Origin: Escherichia phage vB_EcoM-pEK20
Sequence record: MZ868638.1
Length of the DNA stretch: 64,000 bases
Reading direction: 5' to 3' (one strand)
Part shown: positions 5,857 to 38,574 of the stretch, in pieces
How the letters are laid out: every line of letters begins with the position of its first letter
Position numbering within the stretch: position 1 is the stretch's first letter
Made by a program: the position numbers and the translations under genes
Notes under the pieces: generated by a model
What the model saw: only the letters and a program-made list of their open reading frames with translations
Databases searched by the model: none
What the model was told of the DNA's origin: nothing

Positions 5857-8182
<2,326 letters not shown>

Positions 8183-28491: not shown

Positions 28492-29226
28492 ATGGAGCTA
28501 ATCTTTTTAAGCGGCATCAAACGTAGTGGTAAAGACACCACTGCCGATTACATCAATTCAAACTTTAAATCCGTAAAATACCAATTGGCATATCCGATTA
28601 AAGACGCTCTAGCAATAGCCTGGGGACGTAGGCATGCTGAAAACCCTGATGTATTCACAGAGTTGAAATACGAATACTTTGAAGGCATTGGATACGACCG
28701 TGAAACACCATTAAATCTCAATAAGTTGGATGTTATTGAATTATTGGAAGAAGCGCTAATTTATTTACAAAGTCAATATTTACCAATTAATAACGTTAAA
28801 GTATTATCATCATTAGAAGGTGGGTATTCATATCTAGATATTAAACCATATGAAGCCCTGCGTGAAGCTATAAATAATATCAACGACACATGGTCAATCC
28901 GCCGTCTTATGCAAGCCCTCGGTACGGATGTTGTCGTTAATTTATTTGACCGTATGTATTGGGTTAAACTTTTTGCATTAAACTATATGGATTATATTGG
29001 AAGTGATTTCGATTACTATGTTGTAACCGATACACGCCAAGTCCATGAAATGGAAACCGCTAGAGCGATGGGTGCTACAGTTATTCATGTGGTTCGCTCT
29101 GGTACGGAATCCACTGATAAACATATTACAGAAGCTGGGTTGCCTATTGAAGAAGGCGATTTAGTTATTACAAACGACGGCTCTTTAGAAGAGCTTTATT
29201 CTAAAATTGAAACAATCTTAAGGTAA
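28492..29226 (+). CDS. 1: deoxynucleoside monophosphate kinase (gene 1)
   Basis: 244 aa; P-loop LSGIKRSGKDT; strong match to remembered T4 gp1. Confidence 0.93.
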   Translation: MELIFLSGIKRSGKDTTADYINSNFKSVKYQLAYPIKDALAIAWGRRHAENPDVFTELKYEYFEGIGYDRETPLNLNKLDVIELLEEALIYLQSQYLPINNVKVLSSLEGGYSYLDIKPYEALREAINNINDTWSIRRLMQALGTDVVVNLFDRMYWVKLFALNYMDYIGSDFDYYVVTDTRQVHEMETARAMGATVIHVVRSGTESTDKHITEAGLPIEEGDLVITNDGSLEELYSKIETILR

Positions 29227-29230
29227 TAAA

Positions 29231-29916
<686 letters not shown>

Positions 29917-29929
29917 TTTTCACAAAACA

Positions 29930-29959
29930 GTTTACATAAGGATGATGGTGTGTTACTAT
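29930..29959 (+). promoter_or_regulatory. early promoter (GTTTAC -35, TACTAT -10) upstream of ipI
   Basis: GTTTAC-N18-TACTAT; spacer contains the inverted repeat AGGATGATGG/CTATCATCCT. Confidence 0.6.
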
Positions 29960-29993
29960 CATCCTATCAAATAAACAACCTCAAGGAAATAAA

Positions 29994-30281
29994 ATGAAAA
30001 CCTATAAAGAATTTATATCACCTGTTGCTAACGTTTCTACTCTGACTGAAGCAACCCTTACTTCCGAAGTTATTAAAGCAAACAAAGGCCGTGAGGGTAA
30101 ACCAATGATTAGTCTAGCTGACGGCGAAGAAGTAAAAGGTACTGTTTACTTAGGAGACGGGTGGTCCGCTAAGAAAGATGGCGCTACTATTGTTATCTCT
30201 CCGGCTGAAGAGACTGCACTGTTTAAAGCTAAGCACATTTCTGTAGCTCAGCTTAAAATTATTGCAAAAACTCTTCTGTAA
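29994..30281 (+). CDS. ipI: internal protein I (capsid-packaged, injected; anti-restriction in T4)
   Basis: 95 aa; N-terminal capsid targeting sequence MKTYKEFI...TLTE with a gp21-type L-x-E cleavage site; position next to 57B as in T4. Confidence 0.8.
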   Translation: MKTYKEFISPVANVSTLTEATLTSEVIKANKGREGKPMISLADGEEVKGTVYLGDGWSAKKDGATIVISPAEETALFKAKHISVAQLKIIAKTLL

Positions 30282-30284
30282 GTA

Positions 30285-30314
30285 GTTTACACGCTGATAG
30301 GACTATGTTATAGT
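30285..30314 (+). promoter_or_regulatory. early promoter with palindrome GATAGGACTA...TAGTCCTATC around the -10
   Basis: GTTTAC-N18-TATAGT preceded by TG; 10-bp perfect inverted repeat flanks the -10. Confidence 0.6.
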
Positions 30315-30352
30315 AGTCCTATCAAAACAAAATGAGTAAATGGAGAAATAAA

Positions 30353-30538
30353 ATGAAACGCGCTGAACTGATTCGTAATGTTGCTGTAGTAATTGCTTCA
30401 ATGGCTTTTAGTTTTTCGATGTTTGTAGGATTCATTTGTGGACTACTGACAACAACAGAAAATTCTATCTCATTGGTAGTAGCATTTCTAATCGGCTTAA
30501 TCGCTATCGTTATGGATAAAATTGCAAAAGGTGAGTAA
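30353..30538 (+). CDS. small membrane protein (two predicted transmembrane helices), unknown function
   Basis: ATG at 30353 after GGAG; hydrophobic stretches VAVVIASMAFSFSMFVGFICGLL and SLVVAFLIGLIAIV. Confidence 0.6.
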   Translation: MKRAELIRNVAVVIASMAFSFSMFVGFICGLLTTTENSISLVVAFLIGLIAIVMDKIAKGE

Positions 30539-30539
30539 A

Positions 30540-30902
30540 ATGAAATATCACGTATATGCGGATTTTGAAGCAAATCCTTCTAAAGACCCTGATTGTCGTT
30601 TGATACGCAGACCATTTGATTCAGCAGCTCAAGCATGGGCTTGGATTAAATCTAAATCGCCTGGTTATATGTTCTTTGAAGTAGTCGATGACAATGGTAC
30701 ACTGCATCCGGCCCCTACAGAAACTATTAATTTCCTTCTGTTTGCCGGTTACGACTGTTATCCTCTTGGCGGTATTGACGACCTTGTTGCTACAGGAAAA
30801 ACTGTTGAGGCTCTTCGCGAAATTTGTAAAAACGCAGAAGAAAATTTTGACTGGTATCATATTGTTGATGCTCATACCTTTGAAATGGTGGAACATTCAT
30901 GA
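30540..30902 (+). CDS. hypothetical protein (120 aa)
   Basis: ORF with ATG after AAGGTGAG; coding-like composition; no recognisable motif. Confidence 0.6.
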   Translation: MKYHVYADFEANPSKDPDCRLIRRPFDSAAQAWAWIKSKSPGYMFFEVVDDNGTLHPAPTETINFLLFAGYDCYPLGGIDDLVATGKTVEALREICKNAEENFDWYHIVDAHTFEMVEHS

Positions 30903-31189
30903 TTCTTTATGCTAAGGTAAAATCCGTTGAGAACGGATATGAAAGCGACCGAGCTGCAGCTAAAGCACTAGTCGATTACTATGGTATTTTGACCCACTTT
31001 GAAGTTGAAAAGGTTTACGTCGACCGTTCATCTTCACAGGTTAAATTACTTTGGGAAGACCGCAAATTTAATAGTGTGAACTTTGATTTCTTTATTGAAA
31101 CAGAAAAAGGTCCTCTTGAATACGATATTTTCAAGAATCCTTTGAAATTATGTTGCATTGAATATAATTACATTAATATGGTACGGTGA
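30899..31189 (+). CDS. hypothetical protein (96 aa)
   Basis: ORF with ATGA overlap to the upstream gene. Confidence 0.55.
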   Translation: MILYAKVKSVENGYESDRAAAKALVDYYGILTHFEVEKVYVDRSSSQVKLLWEDRKFNSVNFDFFIETEKGPLEYDIFKNPLKLCCIEYNYINMVR

Positions 31190-31193
31190 GTAA

Positions 31194-31709
31194 ATGAATA
31201 TTTGTTTAGGCAGTACAATTCCTAAAGGTTACGTAATTGATGTCACTACTTGGGAAAATGACGGCGACAACTATAAAACCAAAACATTATTTGGTGTAGA
31301 AGAGCATGAGCTCCAACAGTTTAAATATCTCTTGAAGAAATTTAAGAGTCGTCATTCTAGCACTAAAGCTGAACGTTACTGTGGTAATACACCATTCAGT
31401 GATTGCTCGCTTTTAATCTATGAATACTTGGTTGAAGGACTGTTCTCAGACCAGCTTTATCCAGAATTCATTAAAAAGGTCTTTGATATTGAAGTCGACC
31501 TTGGTAATAAATCTGAAGAAGACGAATCGCGTGTATTCGACCTGTTCTTTGTGAAAGGCGATGAGATATCCCAAGGCCTTATTGATATTCTTGGCTATGC
31601 TTCTGAATACTACGACTATGATTTCTTGCGTGTAGTTGAACGTGTTGAATTCGCTTATATTGAAGAAGAAATTGTTTTGCCGACTGTTAAAATGATTGAT
31701 TTGCTTTAA
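31194..31709 (+). CDS. hypothetical protein (171 aa), acidic C-terminal half
   Basis: ORF tightly following the previous gene; no recognisable motif. Confidence 0.6.
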   Translation: MNICLGSTIPKGYVIDVTTWENDGDNYKTKTLFGVEEHELQQFKYLLKKFKSRHSSTKAERYCGNTPFSDCSLLIYEYLVEGLFSDQLYPEFIKKVFDIEVDLGNKSEEDESRVFDLFFVKGDEISQGLIDILGYASEYYDYDFLRVVERVEFAYIEEEIVLPTVKMIDLL

Positions 31710-31788
31710 GAATTATGTGTTATTATTAATTCATACCCTCTATTACCAAAGGTGCTCTAAAGTGCCTTTCATAATAGAAAGTTATTTA

Positions 31789-31863
31789 GGCCCTGTAGCT
31801 CAATGGGAGAGCTGTCAGCTCATAACTGATAGGTAGCTGGATCGAAACCAGCCAGGGTCACCA
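31789..31863 (+). tRNA. tRNA with CAU anticodon (Met or lysidine-modified Ile type), CCA encoded
   Basis: Hand-folded cloverleaf: acceptor GGCCCTG/CAGGGTC, D-arm GCTC-AATGGGA-GAGC, anticodon arm GTCAG-CTCATAA-CTGAT, T-arm GCTGG-ATCGAAA-CCAGC. Confidence 0.75.
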
Positions 31864-31866
31864 ATC

Positions 31867-31943
<77 letters not shown>

Positions 31944-31961
31944 ACTTTAAGTGAGGAAAAT

Positions 31962-32306
31962 ATGAAAGGCAATATTTATCTGGTAGTTCATGACTTAACG
32001 TTTTATTTTAACGAACGTGAAACAGTTATTTCCGATAGGTTAATTAATTCGCTGTATCAGCATGCTGATTATGTCTATTTTCAAAATGAATTCGGACATT
32101 GGAAGTTTCTTAAAAACCGTTCCGGGTTAACTAGTTTTGAATACTTTGACCGTAAAGACCTTTTAAACGAAATTCCATTACAACATAGGTTCCAGAAACG
32201 CGAATCACTATACTATTGTCGTCATATACCAAATGCTGAATGTGTTGATGAAGTAATTAATCTATGGCGTAGACGTAGAGAACAAATTGATGATATGTCA
32301 AAATAA
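31962..32306 (+). CDS. hypothetical protein (114 aa) downstream of the tRNA pair
   Basis: ATG at 31962 after GAGG; the track ORF start at 31914 would overlap tRNA-Arg. Confidence 0.6.
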   Translation: MKGNIYLVVHDLTFYFNERETVISDRLINSLYQHADYVYFQNEFGHWKFLKNRSGLTSFEYFDRKDLLNEIPLQHRFQKRESLYYCRHIPNAECVDEVINLWRRRREQIDDMSK

Positions 32307-32608
32307 GAAGCCGGGTCGCTACCGGCAAGTCGTCGGACTGATGTTCCCTGAGTAAGGACTGGTCTTAATAAATCTTTATGATTTGTTAATATCCCCTTAC
32401 ATCACAGCAGAAACGGCGCAAAGAATTATCGATTCGAGGAAATATCTTTGCCGTAAGCCGAGTAGCGTTTTTGACGGAACGTTCGGATATGGTCGAGATA
32501 TGGCCTTTTAAAAATATTGAGTAGCGTCAACTGCTTAATAACCGGGTTCGAATCCCGGCGTTTCGTACAAACACTTGCCTTAGTAGGTGGAAACCCCGAC
32601 AAGGTATA
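32307..32608 (+). ncRNA. ORF-free structured region, possible small stable RNA(s) with a tRNA-like T-arm
   Basis: About 300 nt with no ORF; CCGGG-TTCGAAT-CCCGG T-arm-like element at 32542-32558; repeated GAGTAGCG motif; ends at an intrinsic terminator. Confidence 0.4.
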
Positions 32609-32609
32609 T

Positions 32610-32638
32610 AGCCCCTTCCGAAAGGTTGGGGCTTTTTT
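32610..32638 (+). terminator. rho-independent terminator (AGCCCC...GGGGCU + U6)
   Basis: GC stem with inner CC-GAAA-GG, followed by TTTTTT. Confidence 0.8.
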
Positions 32639-32639
32639 G

Positions 32640-32647
32640 TATAAATA
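32640..32647 (+). promoter_or_regulatory. late promoter TATAAATA upstream of the 208-aa internal-protein-like gene
   Basis: Exact TATAAATA 35 nt upstream of the ATG at 32683. Confidence 0.65.
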
Positions 32648-32682
32648 TAGTAAACAATAAACCTACTTTCTAAGGACCATCA

Positions 32683-33309
32683 ATGTATACTTTTAATGAA
32701 TTTTTAGCCGAAACGGAAGTAATCACCGAAGCCGGTGTACGTATGACAAAAGAGAAATGGCAAGCTGCTTACGATGCTATTTCTGGTACAAAAACTAGTA
32801 CAGAGTTTTTCAAAAACGTTCAAGCCATGTATGGTATCGACACTTCCAGCCAAAAAGAATATTACAGAGCTTCTAAAGCATTCAAAGATATTGTTAGTGG
32901 CGGTGTTTCTGCTAAATCGGGTTCGCCTAAAGTAAAACCTGCTCCTACCGTTCCTAAACCTGCGACCCCTAAAGCAATAGCAAAACCTGAGCCTAAGCCG
33001 GAAGTAAAAGCAACTCCTAAAGCTCCTGCTCTTAAGTTTGATACTTCTAGCCTGGAAAAAAAATATAAACAACTATCTTCGCTTGTTCGTGATATTGAAT
33101 CCGATACATCTTCACTCGTTCGTGAATTCAACAGTCTTCGTAATGGCCAACATATCAACAACCTTGATACCCCAGACCTTTATCGTCTTTATTTGACTAT
33201 CGAAGGTTTGAAGTATACTCAACCACTTCACGATGCGATTAAAGAAAAACTTCGTCAGGCAGGTCGTTTGGCTGCTGACGCTGCTCAGTATGCAAAAACT
33301 CGTAAGTAA
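32683..33309 (+). CDS. internal-protein-like protein with capsid targeting sequence (208 aa)
   Basis: N-terminus MYTFNEFLAETEVITEA resembles the T4 CTS (MKTYQEFIAE) with L-x-E/I-x-E sites; Pro/Lys/Ala-rich linker; late promoter upstream. Confidence 0.65.
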   Translation: MYTFNEFLAETEVITEAGVRMTKEKWQAAYDAISGTKTSTEFFKNVQAMYGIDTSSQKEYYRASKAFKDIVSGGVSAKSGSPKVKPAPTVPKPATPKAIAKPEPKPEVKATPKAPALKFDTSSLEKKYKQLSSLVRDIESDTSSLVREFNSLRNGQHINNLDTPDLYRLYLTIEGLKYTQPLHDAIKEKLRQAGRLAADAAQYAKTRK

Positions 33310-33981: not shown

Positions 33982-34146
33982 ATGACTACTTTAATTATTT
34001 GGTTTGACGAAAATGAAGAAACATACTGTGTGAACATTGGCGAAAGCCCAATGCCTGAATTTGAATCCTCAGATAAAAACTCTGTTGTATCTTGGGCTGA
34101 AGGTTATAAAGCAGCTAAAGGTGACGTTGAAATAATTTACATCTAA
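33982..34146 (+). CDS. hypothetical small protein (54 aa)
   Basis: ATG at 33982 after GAGGAG; preceded by a TGTACA-type promoter. Confidence 0.5.
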   Translation: MTTLIIWFDENEETYCVNIGESPMPEFESSDKNSVVSWAEGYKAAKGDVEIIYI

Positions 34147-37225: not shown

Positions 37226-37255
37226 GTTTACAACAAGATAGGGCTATGTTATAGT
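37226..37255 (+). promoter_or_regulatory. early promoter with palindrome GATAGGGCTA...TAGTCCTATC
   Basis: GTTTAC-N18-TATAGT with TG extension. Confidence 0.6.
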
Positions 37256-37283
37256 AGTCCTATCAAATTAAACGGAGACCACA

Positions 37284-38526: not shown

Positions 38527-38556
38527 AGATAGGACTATGTTATAGTAGTCCTATTA
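38527..38556 (+). promoter_or_regulatory. early promoter with palindrome GATAGGACTA...TAGTCCTATT
   Basis: GTTTAC-N18-TATAGT. Confidence 0.6.
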
Positions 38557-38574
38557 AAACATGAGGAGAATATT

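Follow-up and report, generated by a model that had tools for sequence, protein, structure and literature searches.

Sequence comparison assigns the genes between ipI and the tRNA pair of a Mosigvirus phage to T4 trna.4, trna.3, and trna.2 and to RB69 ORF151c

Introduction

Between ipI and their tRNA genes, phages T4 and RB69 carry three small genes in the same order and on the same strand: trna.4, trna.3, and trna.2 in T4 (UniProt P13322, P13323, and P13324) and tRNA.4, tRNA.3, and tRNA.2 in RB69. Time-resolved omics of T4 placed trna.2 and trna.3 in the early class by both RNA and protein and trna.4 by RNA only (PMC9697503 supplement). Tn-seq data for T4 and Bas37, two phages without ORF151c, come from a preprint (10.1101/2025.11.20.689424) and are considered here for the comparisons of T4 REF with the delta-rnlA library, Bas37 on K-12 with Bas37 on CFT073, and Bas37 on K-12 with Bas37 on CFE299. 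In these comparisons the orthologues of all three genes were dispensable on E. coli K-12, which fits accessory, host-interaction genes. They had no fitness effect in the T4 comparison and were flat in Bas37 on CFE299 and on the clinical strain CFT073, where the log2FC was −0.13 for trna.2, −0.06 for trna.3, and +0.06 for trna.4 (q = 1); in contrast, ipI (−2.09) and 57B (−1.56) were depleted on CFT073. The text of the preprint does not name the three genes among its hits.

One product of this group has been physically associated with a bacterial defense enzyme. T4 Trna.2 co-purified with active DRT1 in a single proteomic enrichment, where just two T4 proteins, Trna.2 included, showed enrichment with wild-type DRT1 relative to the RT-dead mutant (PMC13275509). 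Another T4 orphan, nrdC.1, was recently shown to be an anti-defense factor acting against Septu, according to the Tn-seq preprint (10.1101/2025.11.20.689424). Here we describe the corresponding locus in Escherichia phage vB_EcoM-pEK20 (MZ868638.1), within a stretch of 64,000 nucleotides referred to below as the window, which is Mosigvirus DNA with 99.9% identity to phage HX01. A preliminary description of this DNA had reported four uncharacterized genes at the site and, by guilt by association with the neighboring Acb1 and ipI genes, had proposed them as candidates for counter-defense or host takeover.

Results

Organization and conservation of the locus

On its 5′ side the four-gene block is flanked by 57B/Acb1 (PF23474, E 1.3e-58) and ipI (PF11634, E 1.1e-49), and in the window it is also preceded by a dNMP kinase gene; on its 3′ side lie tRNA-Met and then tRNA-Arg. 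The features of the locus are as follows.

30286-30314, + strand: early sigma-70-type promoter (TTTACA, 17-nt spacer, TATAGT, extended TG)
30295-30324, + strand: 12-bp stem-loop that overlaps the promoter spacer and −10 box (predicted fold, −17.7 kcal/mol)
30353-30538, + strand: ORF1, trna.4 orthologue, 61 aa
30540-30902, + strand: ORF2, trna.3 orthologue, 120 aa, acidic, pI 4.7
30899-31189, + strand: ORF3, trna.2 orthologue, 96 aa
31194-31709, + strand: ORF4, RB69ORF151c orthologue, 171 aa, acidic, pI 4.5
31789-31863, + strand: tRNA-Met (CAU), ARAGORN and Rfam (59.4 bits)
31867-31943, + strand: tRNA-Arg (UCU), ARAGORN and Rfam (71.1 bits)

All four genes were thus present between ipI and the tRNA pair and on the + strand, as first reported. 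They are tightly packed, with a 1-nt gap between ORF1 and ORF2, an ATGA overlap that places the trna.2 start on the trna.3 stop, and a 4-nt gap between ORF3 and ORF4; a Shine-Dalgarno-like GGAG or GGTGA lies 5 to 13 nt 5′ of each ORF. When compared with seven related phages, the four ORFs gave dN/dS values of 0.00-0.26, characteristic of purifying selection, and tblastn located trna.4 in 936, trna.3 in 761, trna.2 in 799, and ORF151c in 561 phage records. We concluded from the dN/dS values and from the spread across phage records that the four ORFs are real genes rather than chance frames; the dN/dS values ruled out a spurious-ORF reading.

Searches for relatives of known function yielded little. 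None of the four proteins matched the local copy of Pfam or, at E≤1, the PADLOC defense-protein profiles, no kinship in sequence or fold to a characterized anti-defense inhibitor was found, and no paralogue of any of the four ORFs was present within the window. The early statement that the proteins hold no recognizable motifs thus agrees with the searches of local Pfam and PADLOC for all four and of NCBIfam for the ORF151c family. The term "uncharacterized" needs qualification: it is accurate insofar as PHROG annotates all four as "unknown function," but the genes have long been named. Judged by sequence, all four ORFs had been annotated before among T4-type early genes, as trna.4, trna.3, and trna.2 together with RB69 ORF151c.

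The block as a whole is, by sequence comparison, conserved across T4-type phages of enterobacteria; on the presence check across T4-like genomes named in the preliminary description, the genes were found in 561 to 936 phage records each. The place of trna.4, 3′ of the ipI slot and 5′ of trna.3, is identical in T4, RB69, moha, JK45, and Bas37, and in every T4-type genome examined the block lies directly 5′ of the tRNA cluster. The T4 locus differs in what comes directly next: eight clustered tRNAs together with the homing endonuclease gene segB there, a fourth ORF and only two tRNAs here. Members can be lost singly: ORF151c is absent from T4 and Bas37, and trna.2 is absent from one other locus (L010). 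This independent gene loss ruled out an obligate four-protein complex or any machine that requires all four parts. The array of internal-protein genes just 5′ of the block behaves differently; it is variable, with one to four different genes in related phages. The MKT[FY]xEF start of these internal-protein-like genes is absent from all four ORFs.

Within 29200-32800 the predicted promoter at 30286-30314 was the best sigma-70-type match, with agreement at 10 of 12 positions; counting it, the window holds 13 + strand sites of this type. The promoter of ipI at 29931-29959 is built alike (TTTACA-17-TATAGT type), in keeping with the early promoter architecture previously said to be common to the block and ipI. 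Together with its stem-loop, the promoter resembles in sequence the PeSL-type composite promoter/terminator cassettes described for the T4 group (PMC4122927; see also PMC2839356): a TTTACA-N17-TATAGT promoter is paired with a stem-loop, and the cassette is repeated along the early region adjoining gene-insertion sites, with near-identical copies at ~37238 and ~38529. Relative to the published T4-group consensus, TTTACW-N17-TAYWAT, the −10 sequence here, TATAGT, differs at one position. As no + strand terminator-like site was found between 30286 and the tRNAs, transcription would be expected to read through, and the two tRNA genes probably share an early transcript with the four-gene block. In Rfam searches only the two tRNAs passed threshold; matches to snoR130 and to plastid families scored below it and were set aside as due to chance.

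Trna.4, Trna.3, and Trna.2

ORF1 matched T4 Trna.4 over its full length without gaps (51 of 61 residues identical, 84%; E 7e-36) and phrog_1692 over profile positions 1-61 (2e-32). Its conserved start is the ATG at 30353 and not that at 30332, since in the longer form the PHROG profile does not start until residue 8 and the T4 orthologue has 61 aa. Hydropathy analysis bore out the two-helix membrane protein of the preliminary description: hydrophobic segments occupy approximately residues 10-31 and 37-54, with Kyte-Doolittle 19-residue peaks of 2.28 (starting at residue 10) and 2.43 (starting at residue 39), a TTTENS loop lies between them, and the ends are charged; from these properties we infer that the product is a two-helix membrane hairpin. 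Selection on the gene was stringent: comparison with Mosigvirus relatives gave no non-synonymous changes (dS 0.07-0.10), and comparison with T4-type genomes gave dN/dS of 0.11-0.12. It is also retained in more phage records than any of the other three.

ORF2 retains the synteny of trna.3 and matched phrog_1411 (4e-46), whereas its identity to T4 Trna.3 was 39% over 132 columns (E 1e-27). This makes trna.3 the fastest-diverging gene of the block, its neighbors being 81-87% identical to their T4 counterparts. The T4 protein is longer (136 aa versus 120 aa here), and both halves have strongly diverged. The N-terminal half is variable, and the C-terminal mini-domain is widespread in phages; in four loci (L061-L064) that C-terminal module occurs as a stand-alone ORF of 55-70 aa. 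Three ORF2 homologues of 57-92% identity (P0025-P0027) carry the precomputed Pfam label PF26894, which is a label on those homologues and not a direct match of ORF2, and one of them, P0027, is chimeric, joining an N-half of the Mosigvirus type to a C-half of the T4 type. An internal duplication suspected by eye was rejected, as hhalign put the probability of a match between the N-half and the C-half at 0.3%.

ORF3 was 81% identical to T4 Trna.2 over its full length (E 1e-52), with synteny kept, and matched phrog_2023 (3.6e-44); a protein identical to it (P0028) carries the precomputed Pfam label PF27001. An AlphaFold2 model of Trna.2 built from 31 close homologues had a pLDDT of 45 and a pTM of 0.27, too poor for a fold search, and thus lent no structural support to the idea that Trna.2 binds nucleic acid.

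The RB69ORF151c family

ORF4 was 92% identical to RB69ORF151c, which occupies the same genomic place in RB69, and it matched the whole profile of phrog_2290 (1.8e-68). Both are products of the same kind as ORF4, and neither has an assigned function. The wider family comprises at least 1,062 sequence clusters and is spread over very diverse virulent phages. Within it W20-E21-N22-D23 are invariant and D25, G64-N65, and R146 nearly so, and this set of polar residues persists even though mean column identity in 76 family sequences was only about 23%. The breadth of phages and the invariant residues together suggest a universal target rather than a host-specific defense protein.

The family, divergent members included, had no match in local Pfam or in NCBIfam, and its homologues carry no precomputed Pfam label. 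Sequence profiles of the PDB gave no match for ORF151c, Trna.3, or Trna.2. The predicted ORF151c model was confident and shares its fold with no solved structure, so the remote-homology and structural comparisons named in the preliminary description produced a usable model for this protein and no relative with known activity by either sequence or fold. A scan of cellular genomes for the peptide ENDGDNYK found no relative, and a degenerate DNA motif scan of cellular genomes found 10 loci, of which only three were genuine family members; each of these lay on a metagenome-assembled contig. In the literature collection searched there was no mention of WENDGD, ENDGDNY, or RB69ORF151c. In 17 loci outside the T4-type phages, the neighbors of ORF151c relatives included topoisomerase II, DNA ligase, ThyX, NAMPT, dUTPase, PolA, DnaB, and NUDIX genes; no neighbor was constant, and at none of 16 loci did a tRNA adjoin the gene. 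Such surroundings would suit a role in metabolism as well as one in defense.

In the model, the segment E21-N-D-G-D25 is predicted to lie at the tip of a beta-hairpin, with acidic residues alternating around Gly/Ala. Calcium-binding loops of the DxDxDG type, reportedly treated by Rigden and Galperin in 2004, are alike in sequence pattern; in those loops Ca2+ is coordinated by Asp side chains together with backbone carbonyls. ORF151c differs from them in having Glu rather than Asp at the first position and in not keeping the Gly and hydrophobic positions that follow, and we regard the analogy as a lead only.

Discussion

Our preferred explanation, to which we assign a probability of about 0.55, is that trna.4-trna.3-trna.2-ORF151c constitute one early, translationally coupled block, driven by the putative PeSL-type promoter at 30286, in which each gene would supply an independent accessory effector, at work in the opening minutes of an infection and important only for certain hosts or conditions. 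Trna.4 would form a helical hairpin in the inner membrane, its two termini facing the cytoplasm, and would target a partner bound to the membrane. Trna.3 may be a cytoplasmic two-module binder that joins a common phage C-terminal mini-domain to an N-half swapped between lineages. Trna.2 might bind the DNA-loaded form of a defense reverse transcriptase, or the DNA carried by that enzyme. The acidic/Arg site of ORF151c (E21, N22, D23, D25, N65, and R146) may bind a metal, or it may bind or act catalytically on a small ligand that is universally conserved. Against this explanation stand the flat values of the trna.2, trna.3, and trna.4 orthologues in the three Tn-seq comparisons, the origin of the DRT1 link in a single pull-down, the poor Trna.2 model, the neighbors of ORF151c relatives, which would suit a metabolic role equally, and the strong conservation of Trna.4 and Trna.2, which is atypical of arms-race inhibitors.

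A counter-defense reading of the four genes is plausible, and the chance that at least one of them is a counter-defense factor we put somewhat short of even. We consider it unlikely, however, that every one of the four is dedicated to inhibiting bacterial defense systems in the manner of the adjoining Acb1 and IPI. In favor of such a reading, the four ORFs share with 57B/Acb1 and ipI (IPI*) the early region, the promoter type, small size, and non-essentiality, so that small, acidic, early proteins lie beside two proven anti-defense genes; Trna.2 was enriched with DRT1 (PMC13275509); Trna.3 diverges fast and has its halves shuffled; and other T4 orphans, such as nrdC.1, have lately proved to be anti-defense factors, according to the preprint cited above. 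Nevertheless, the four ORFs have no sequence relationship to 57B/Acb1 or ipI, and in the two Bas37 Tn-seq comparisons the host-dependent effects belonged to those two genes, which responded on CFT073, and not to the trna.2, trna.3, and trna.4 orthologues, which were flat on both CFT073 and CFE299. It is the adjoining, variable internal-protein array that forms the true arms-race slot, whereas the four genes make up a stable block on which purifying selection acts; guilt by association, the ground on which the counter-defense proposal was originally made, thus carries little weight here. The invariant residues of ORF151c in very diverse virulent phages likewise argue against a dedicated inhibitor.

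Those same residues, E-N-D-x-D, G-N, and R, look by sequence like a catalytic or metal site, and could instead mean that ORF151c, and perhaps Trna.3, works in the phage's metabolism of nucleic acids or of nucleotides and cofactors, as a small enzyme or a metal-dependent cofactor, for instance, and is not directed at host immunity. The replication, nucleotide, and NAD-metabolism genes around ORF151c relatives and the dNMP kinase gene ahead of the block in the window are consistent with such a role, which we also judge unlikely, given that no relative has a known activity, no neighbor is constant, and T4 and Bas37 manage without ORF151c. Imm and Sp are small early membrane proteins of T4, and by analogy Trna.4, possibly with others, might serve in superinfection exclusion or membrane immunity against competing phages. 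Trna.4 is small, early, and predicted to span the inner membrane twice, and it is very strongly constrained and present in the most records, but it has no sequence similarity to any characterized family, and we hold this role to be improbable. It is very improbable that the ORFs matter chiefly as the 5′ part of a tRNA precursor transcript, or that their products serve the phage tRNAs: although the block adjoins the tRNA cluster in every T4-type genome examined, and here no terminator was found between them, purifying selection at the protein level shows that the products are used, the block is the same whether two or 10 tRNAs come next, and ORF151c relatives at the 16 loci outside the T4-type phages have no tRNA beside them.

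The locus itself is ordinary, being the standard T-even block plus RB69ORF151c, and nothing sets it apart from the hundreds of relatives already sequenced. What it offers is an experimental short list of early, dispensable, conserved genes that have no assigned function in the best-studied phage group, and T4 orphans of this type have repeatedly turned out to be anti-defense factors in recent screens. The physical association of Trna.2 with DRT1 offers one concrete lead for experiments. ORF151c, the only one of the four to stand out, offers another, its phage-only family being large, nearly absent from cellular genomes, and endowed with an invariant polar site and a confident predicted fold unlike any solved structure. 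A bolder combination, which we rate as quite unlikely, is that ORF151c represents a large, undescribed, virulent-phage-only family whose new fold forms a pocket (E-N-D-x-D/G-N/R) that would serve to bind or destroy a small molecule shared by many bacteria, such as an immune signaling nucleotide or a nucleotide-derived metabolite, and that, separately, Trna.2 would bind the DNA product of DRT1-type reverse transcriptases; if true for ORF151c, it would be a broadly distributed counter-defense sponge or enzyme.

Organization of the locus

The four plus-strand genes between ipI and the tRNA pair are already known as named T4-type/RB69 genes. Their positions match the preliminary description exactly, and so do their flanks. 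Gene 1, 57A, 57B/Acb1 (PF23474, E 1.3e-58) and ipI (PF11634, E 1.1e-49) lie on the 5' side, and tRNA-Met and tRNA-Arg on the 3' side.

30286-30314, + strand: early-type promoter TTTACA-17-TATAGT with extended TG, the region's strongest promoter-like site
30295-30324: 12-bp stem-loop overlapping promoter 30286-30314, -17.7 kcal/mol
30353-30538, + strand: ORF 1, trna.4, 61 aa; T4 orthologue Trna.4, 84% identity, E 7e-36
30540-30902, + strand: ORF 2, trna.3, 120 aa; T4 orthologue Trna.3, 39% identity, E 1e-27
30899-31189, + strand: ORF 3, trna.2, 96 aa; T4 orthologue Trna.2, 81% identity, E 1e-52
31194-31709, + strand: ORF 4, ORF151c, 171 aa

Annotated relatives have the same layout. The order in RB69 is ipI, tRNA.4, tRNA.3, tRNA.2, RB69ORF151c, tRNA-Met, tRNA-Arg, and that in T4 is ipI, trna.4, trna.3, trna.2, then an eight-tRNA cluster with segB. 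Over positions 29900-32000 the sequence shares 99.9% identity with Escherichia phage HX01 and Shigella phage SSE1, and 95-97% with many further Mosigvirus genomes. The 171-aa protein, which is missing from the T4 and Bas37 loci, was 84% identical to the same-position ORF of L005, a T4-type contig with ten tRNAs, and 43-46% identical to its relatives in JS98-like phages. All four proteins gave full-length PHROG matches, every one of unknown function. None matched local Pfam or PADLOC, and the ORF151c family, the one run against NCBIfam, found no match there, in keeping with the absence of recognizable motifs described before; precomputed annotation assigns Trna.3 homologues to PF26894 and Trna.2 homologues to PF27001, two families not in the local Pfam copy. 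The term "uncharacterised" therefore holds for function but not for the genes themselves, which are long-named conserved hypotheticals. In the 61-aa product a short polar loop connects two hydrophobic segments, as expected of the two-helix membrane protein predicted earlier.

The ORFs are packed head to tail (1-nt gap, ATGA overlap, 4-nt gap), each preceded by a Shine-Dalgarno-like sequence. The promoter architecture said to be common to ipI and the block was borne out, as the site at 30286-30314 is built like that at 29931 before ipI; the plus strand of the window holds 13 sites of this type between 29.9 and 63.8 kb. No plus-strand terminator-like site was found between the four ORFs and the tRNAs, and transcription of the block therefore likely reads on into the tRNA genes. 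The promoter with its hairpin recurs as near-identical plus-strand cassettes at about 37238-37266 and about 38529-38557; the core of the three is GATAGGACTATGTTATAGTAGTCCTAT, and a partial copy begins at 34136. They match the PeSL promoter/terminator cassettes known from T4-type phages, and such repeats could be recombination substrates between gene slots. A sub-threshold Rfam snoR130 match at the trna.2/ORF151c junction (31153-31268; 28.3 bits, gathering score 40) was judged to be due to chance.

Conservation and loss of block members

A check of presence across T4-like genomes by tblastn found homologues of Trna.4 in 936 phage records, of Trna.2 in 799, of Trna.3 in 761, and of the 171-aa protein in 561; the hosts were Escherichia, Shigella, Salmonella, Yersinia, Klebsiella, Enterobacter and Serratia, with Aeromonas added for the 171-aa protein. 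Members drop out singly: the fourth gene is absent in T4 and Bas37, and trna.2 is absent in the JS98-related contig L010, so we conclude that they are lost independently. There (L010, 4428-5480) the ORF151c homologue directly follows trna.3. Against seven related loci, pairwise dN/dS was 0.00-0.26 when the partner was a Mosigvirus or a T4-type phage and did not exceed 0.36 for L006, the most distant locus. Trna.4 had no non-synonymous changes among the Mosigvirus relatives compared (dS 0.07-0.10), and Trna.3 had the highest ratio in the block (0.14-0.26).

In identity to T4, too, Trna.3 stands apart, at 39% relative to 81-87% for 57B, ipI, Trna.4 and Trna.2, and it is modular. One homologue (P0027) is a chimaera with a Mosigvirus-type N-half and a T4/JS98-type C-half; the C-terminal 55-70 residues (FLLFAG..YYP.GG...FDW.QIV) form a stand-alone ORF in one Salmonella-phage-like contig and in unrelated viral contigs (L061 2983-3204, L062 2962-3195, L063 and L064 2941-3159), which agrees with weaker matches of Trna.3 to two short PHROGs. 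A suspected internal duplication was unsupported when the halves were compared.

Do the genes act against host defence?

The block had been proposed, by association with Acb1/ipI, to serve counter-defence or host takeover. This proposal is partly supported. That the genes are early, accessory and non-essential has been established for their T4 and Bas37 orthologues; a counter-defence role would be plausible. In T4, trna.2 and trna.3 are early in both RNA and protein and trna.4 is early in RNA (PMC9697503 supplement). In the available data of the 2025 Tn-seq preprint (10.1101/2025.11.20.689424), trna.2, trna.3 and trna.4 are non-essential for T4 on K-12, with insertions in 23/25, 39/40 and 16/17 TA sites, respectively, as are the Bas37 orthologues 0257, 0258 and 0259. 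Three of its fitness comparisons were considered: in a control that set the T4 reference library against one built on delta-rnlA cells, the T4 genes did not change significantly (q = 1), and the Bas37 orthologues were flat on CFT073 (log2FC -0.13, -0.06 and +0.06, q = 1) and on CFE299. On CFT073 the neighbouring ipI (-2.09) and 57B (-1.56) were depleted. The orthologues are unnamed among the hits in the preprint's text.

The argument from association is less strong than at first sight, because the block behaves unlike its variable, phenotype-bearing neighbours. The slot between 57B and trna.4 (29917-30352) is truly variable: related phages carry between one and four different genes of the internal-protein-like kind there (compared at L002 1951-2214, L033 12784-13110, L010 3126-4368 and in L005/L006), and its Bas37 occupant, Bas37_0260, was recently shown to be an McrBC inhibitor (2025 Tn-seq preprint). 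The gene count is one in the window, two in L005 and L006, and four in L010; JK45 and RB69 have an extra ORF, and the genes of this array each begin MKT[FY]xEF. The likeliest picture would be four independent early accessory effectors, and we put the probability that at least one of them acts against host defence at roughly 0.35-0.4. Interest in the block is modest because the genes are already known; two leads are worth an experiment, the ORF151c family and a link between Trna.2 and DRT1.

For the latter, one study found that, of the T4 proteins, only Inh and Trna.2 showed enrichment with wild-type DRT1 over its RT-dead mutant (PMC13275509, 2026). As the enzyme's DNA adduct is carried by the wild type only, Trna.2 may recognize DRT1 DNA or the loaded enzyme.

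The ORF151c family

Structure prediction for the 171-aa protein gave a confident AF2 model from 20 sequences (pLDDT 90, pTM 0.84), comprising a beta-hairpin at the N terminus, a bundle of helices and a strand at the C terminus. When 1.84 billion cluster representatives were searched with a profile, 1,062 proteins scored E<=1e-3 and 557 reached E<=1e-10; lengths among the best 150 run from 91 to 244 aa, mostly 130-200, and each is aligned over most of its length. In an alignment of 76 diverse members, whose columns average 23% identity, W20, E21, N22 and D23 never vary and D25, G64, N65, F144, R146 and V147 hardly do, with the W-E-N-D-G-D run at the modelled hairpin tip. Because polar residues are strictly conserved over so wide a family, the pattern points to a putative metal, ligand or catalytic site with some universal target, and away from a host-specific protein inhibitor; the run may resemble DxDxDG calcium-binding loops. 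Neither the motif nor the name RB69ORF151c occurred in the papers searched.

Diverse viral contigs carry the family, including some of 200-368 kb, and it is almost missing from cellular genomes: in 185,579 species representatives, a scan for a peptide pattern gave zero relatives and a motif scan three true members, each on a metagenome-assembled contig. Outside T4-type phages no adjacent tRNA genes were found; there the family lies among genes of replication, nucleotide and NAD metabolism, none of them a constant partner.

Two observations concern the 3' side of the tRNA pair. In L004, a close relative (ORF151c protein 92% identical), ARAGORN called a 94-nt "tRNA-Stop (anticodon tta)" at 6285-6378, about 530 nt 3' of tRNA-Arg, a call it did not make in the window. 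A 114-aa ORF just 3' of tRNA-Arg (31962-32306), which is lacking in the T4 stretch examined (L003), is RB69ORF150c-like, matches phrog_3355 and, below threshold, DUF2654, and has a very low dN/dS of 0.03-0.05.
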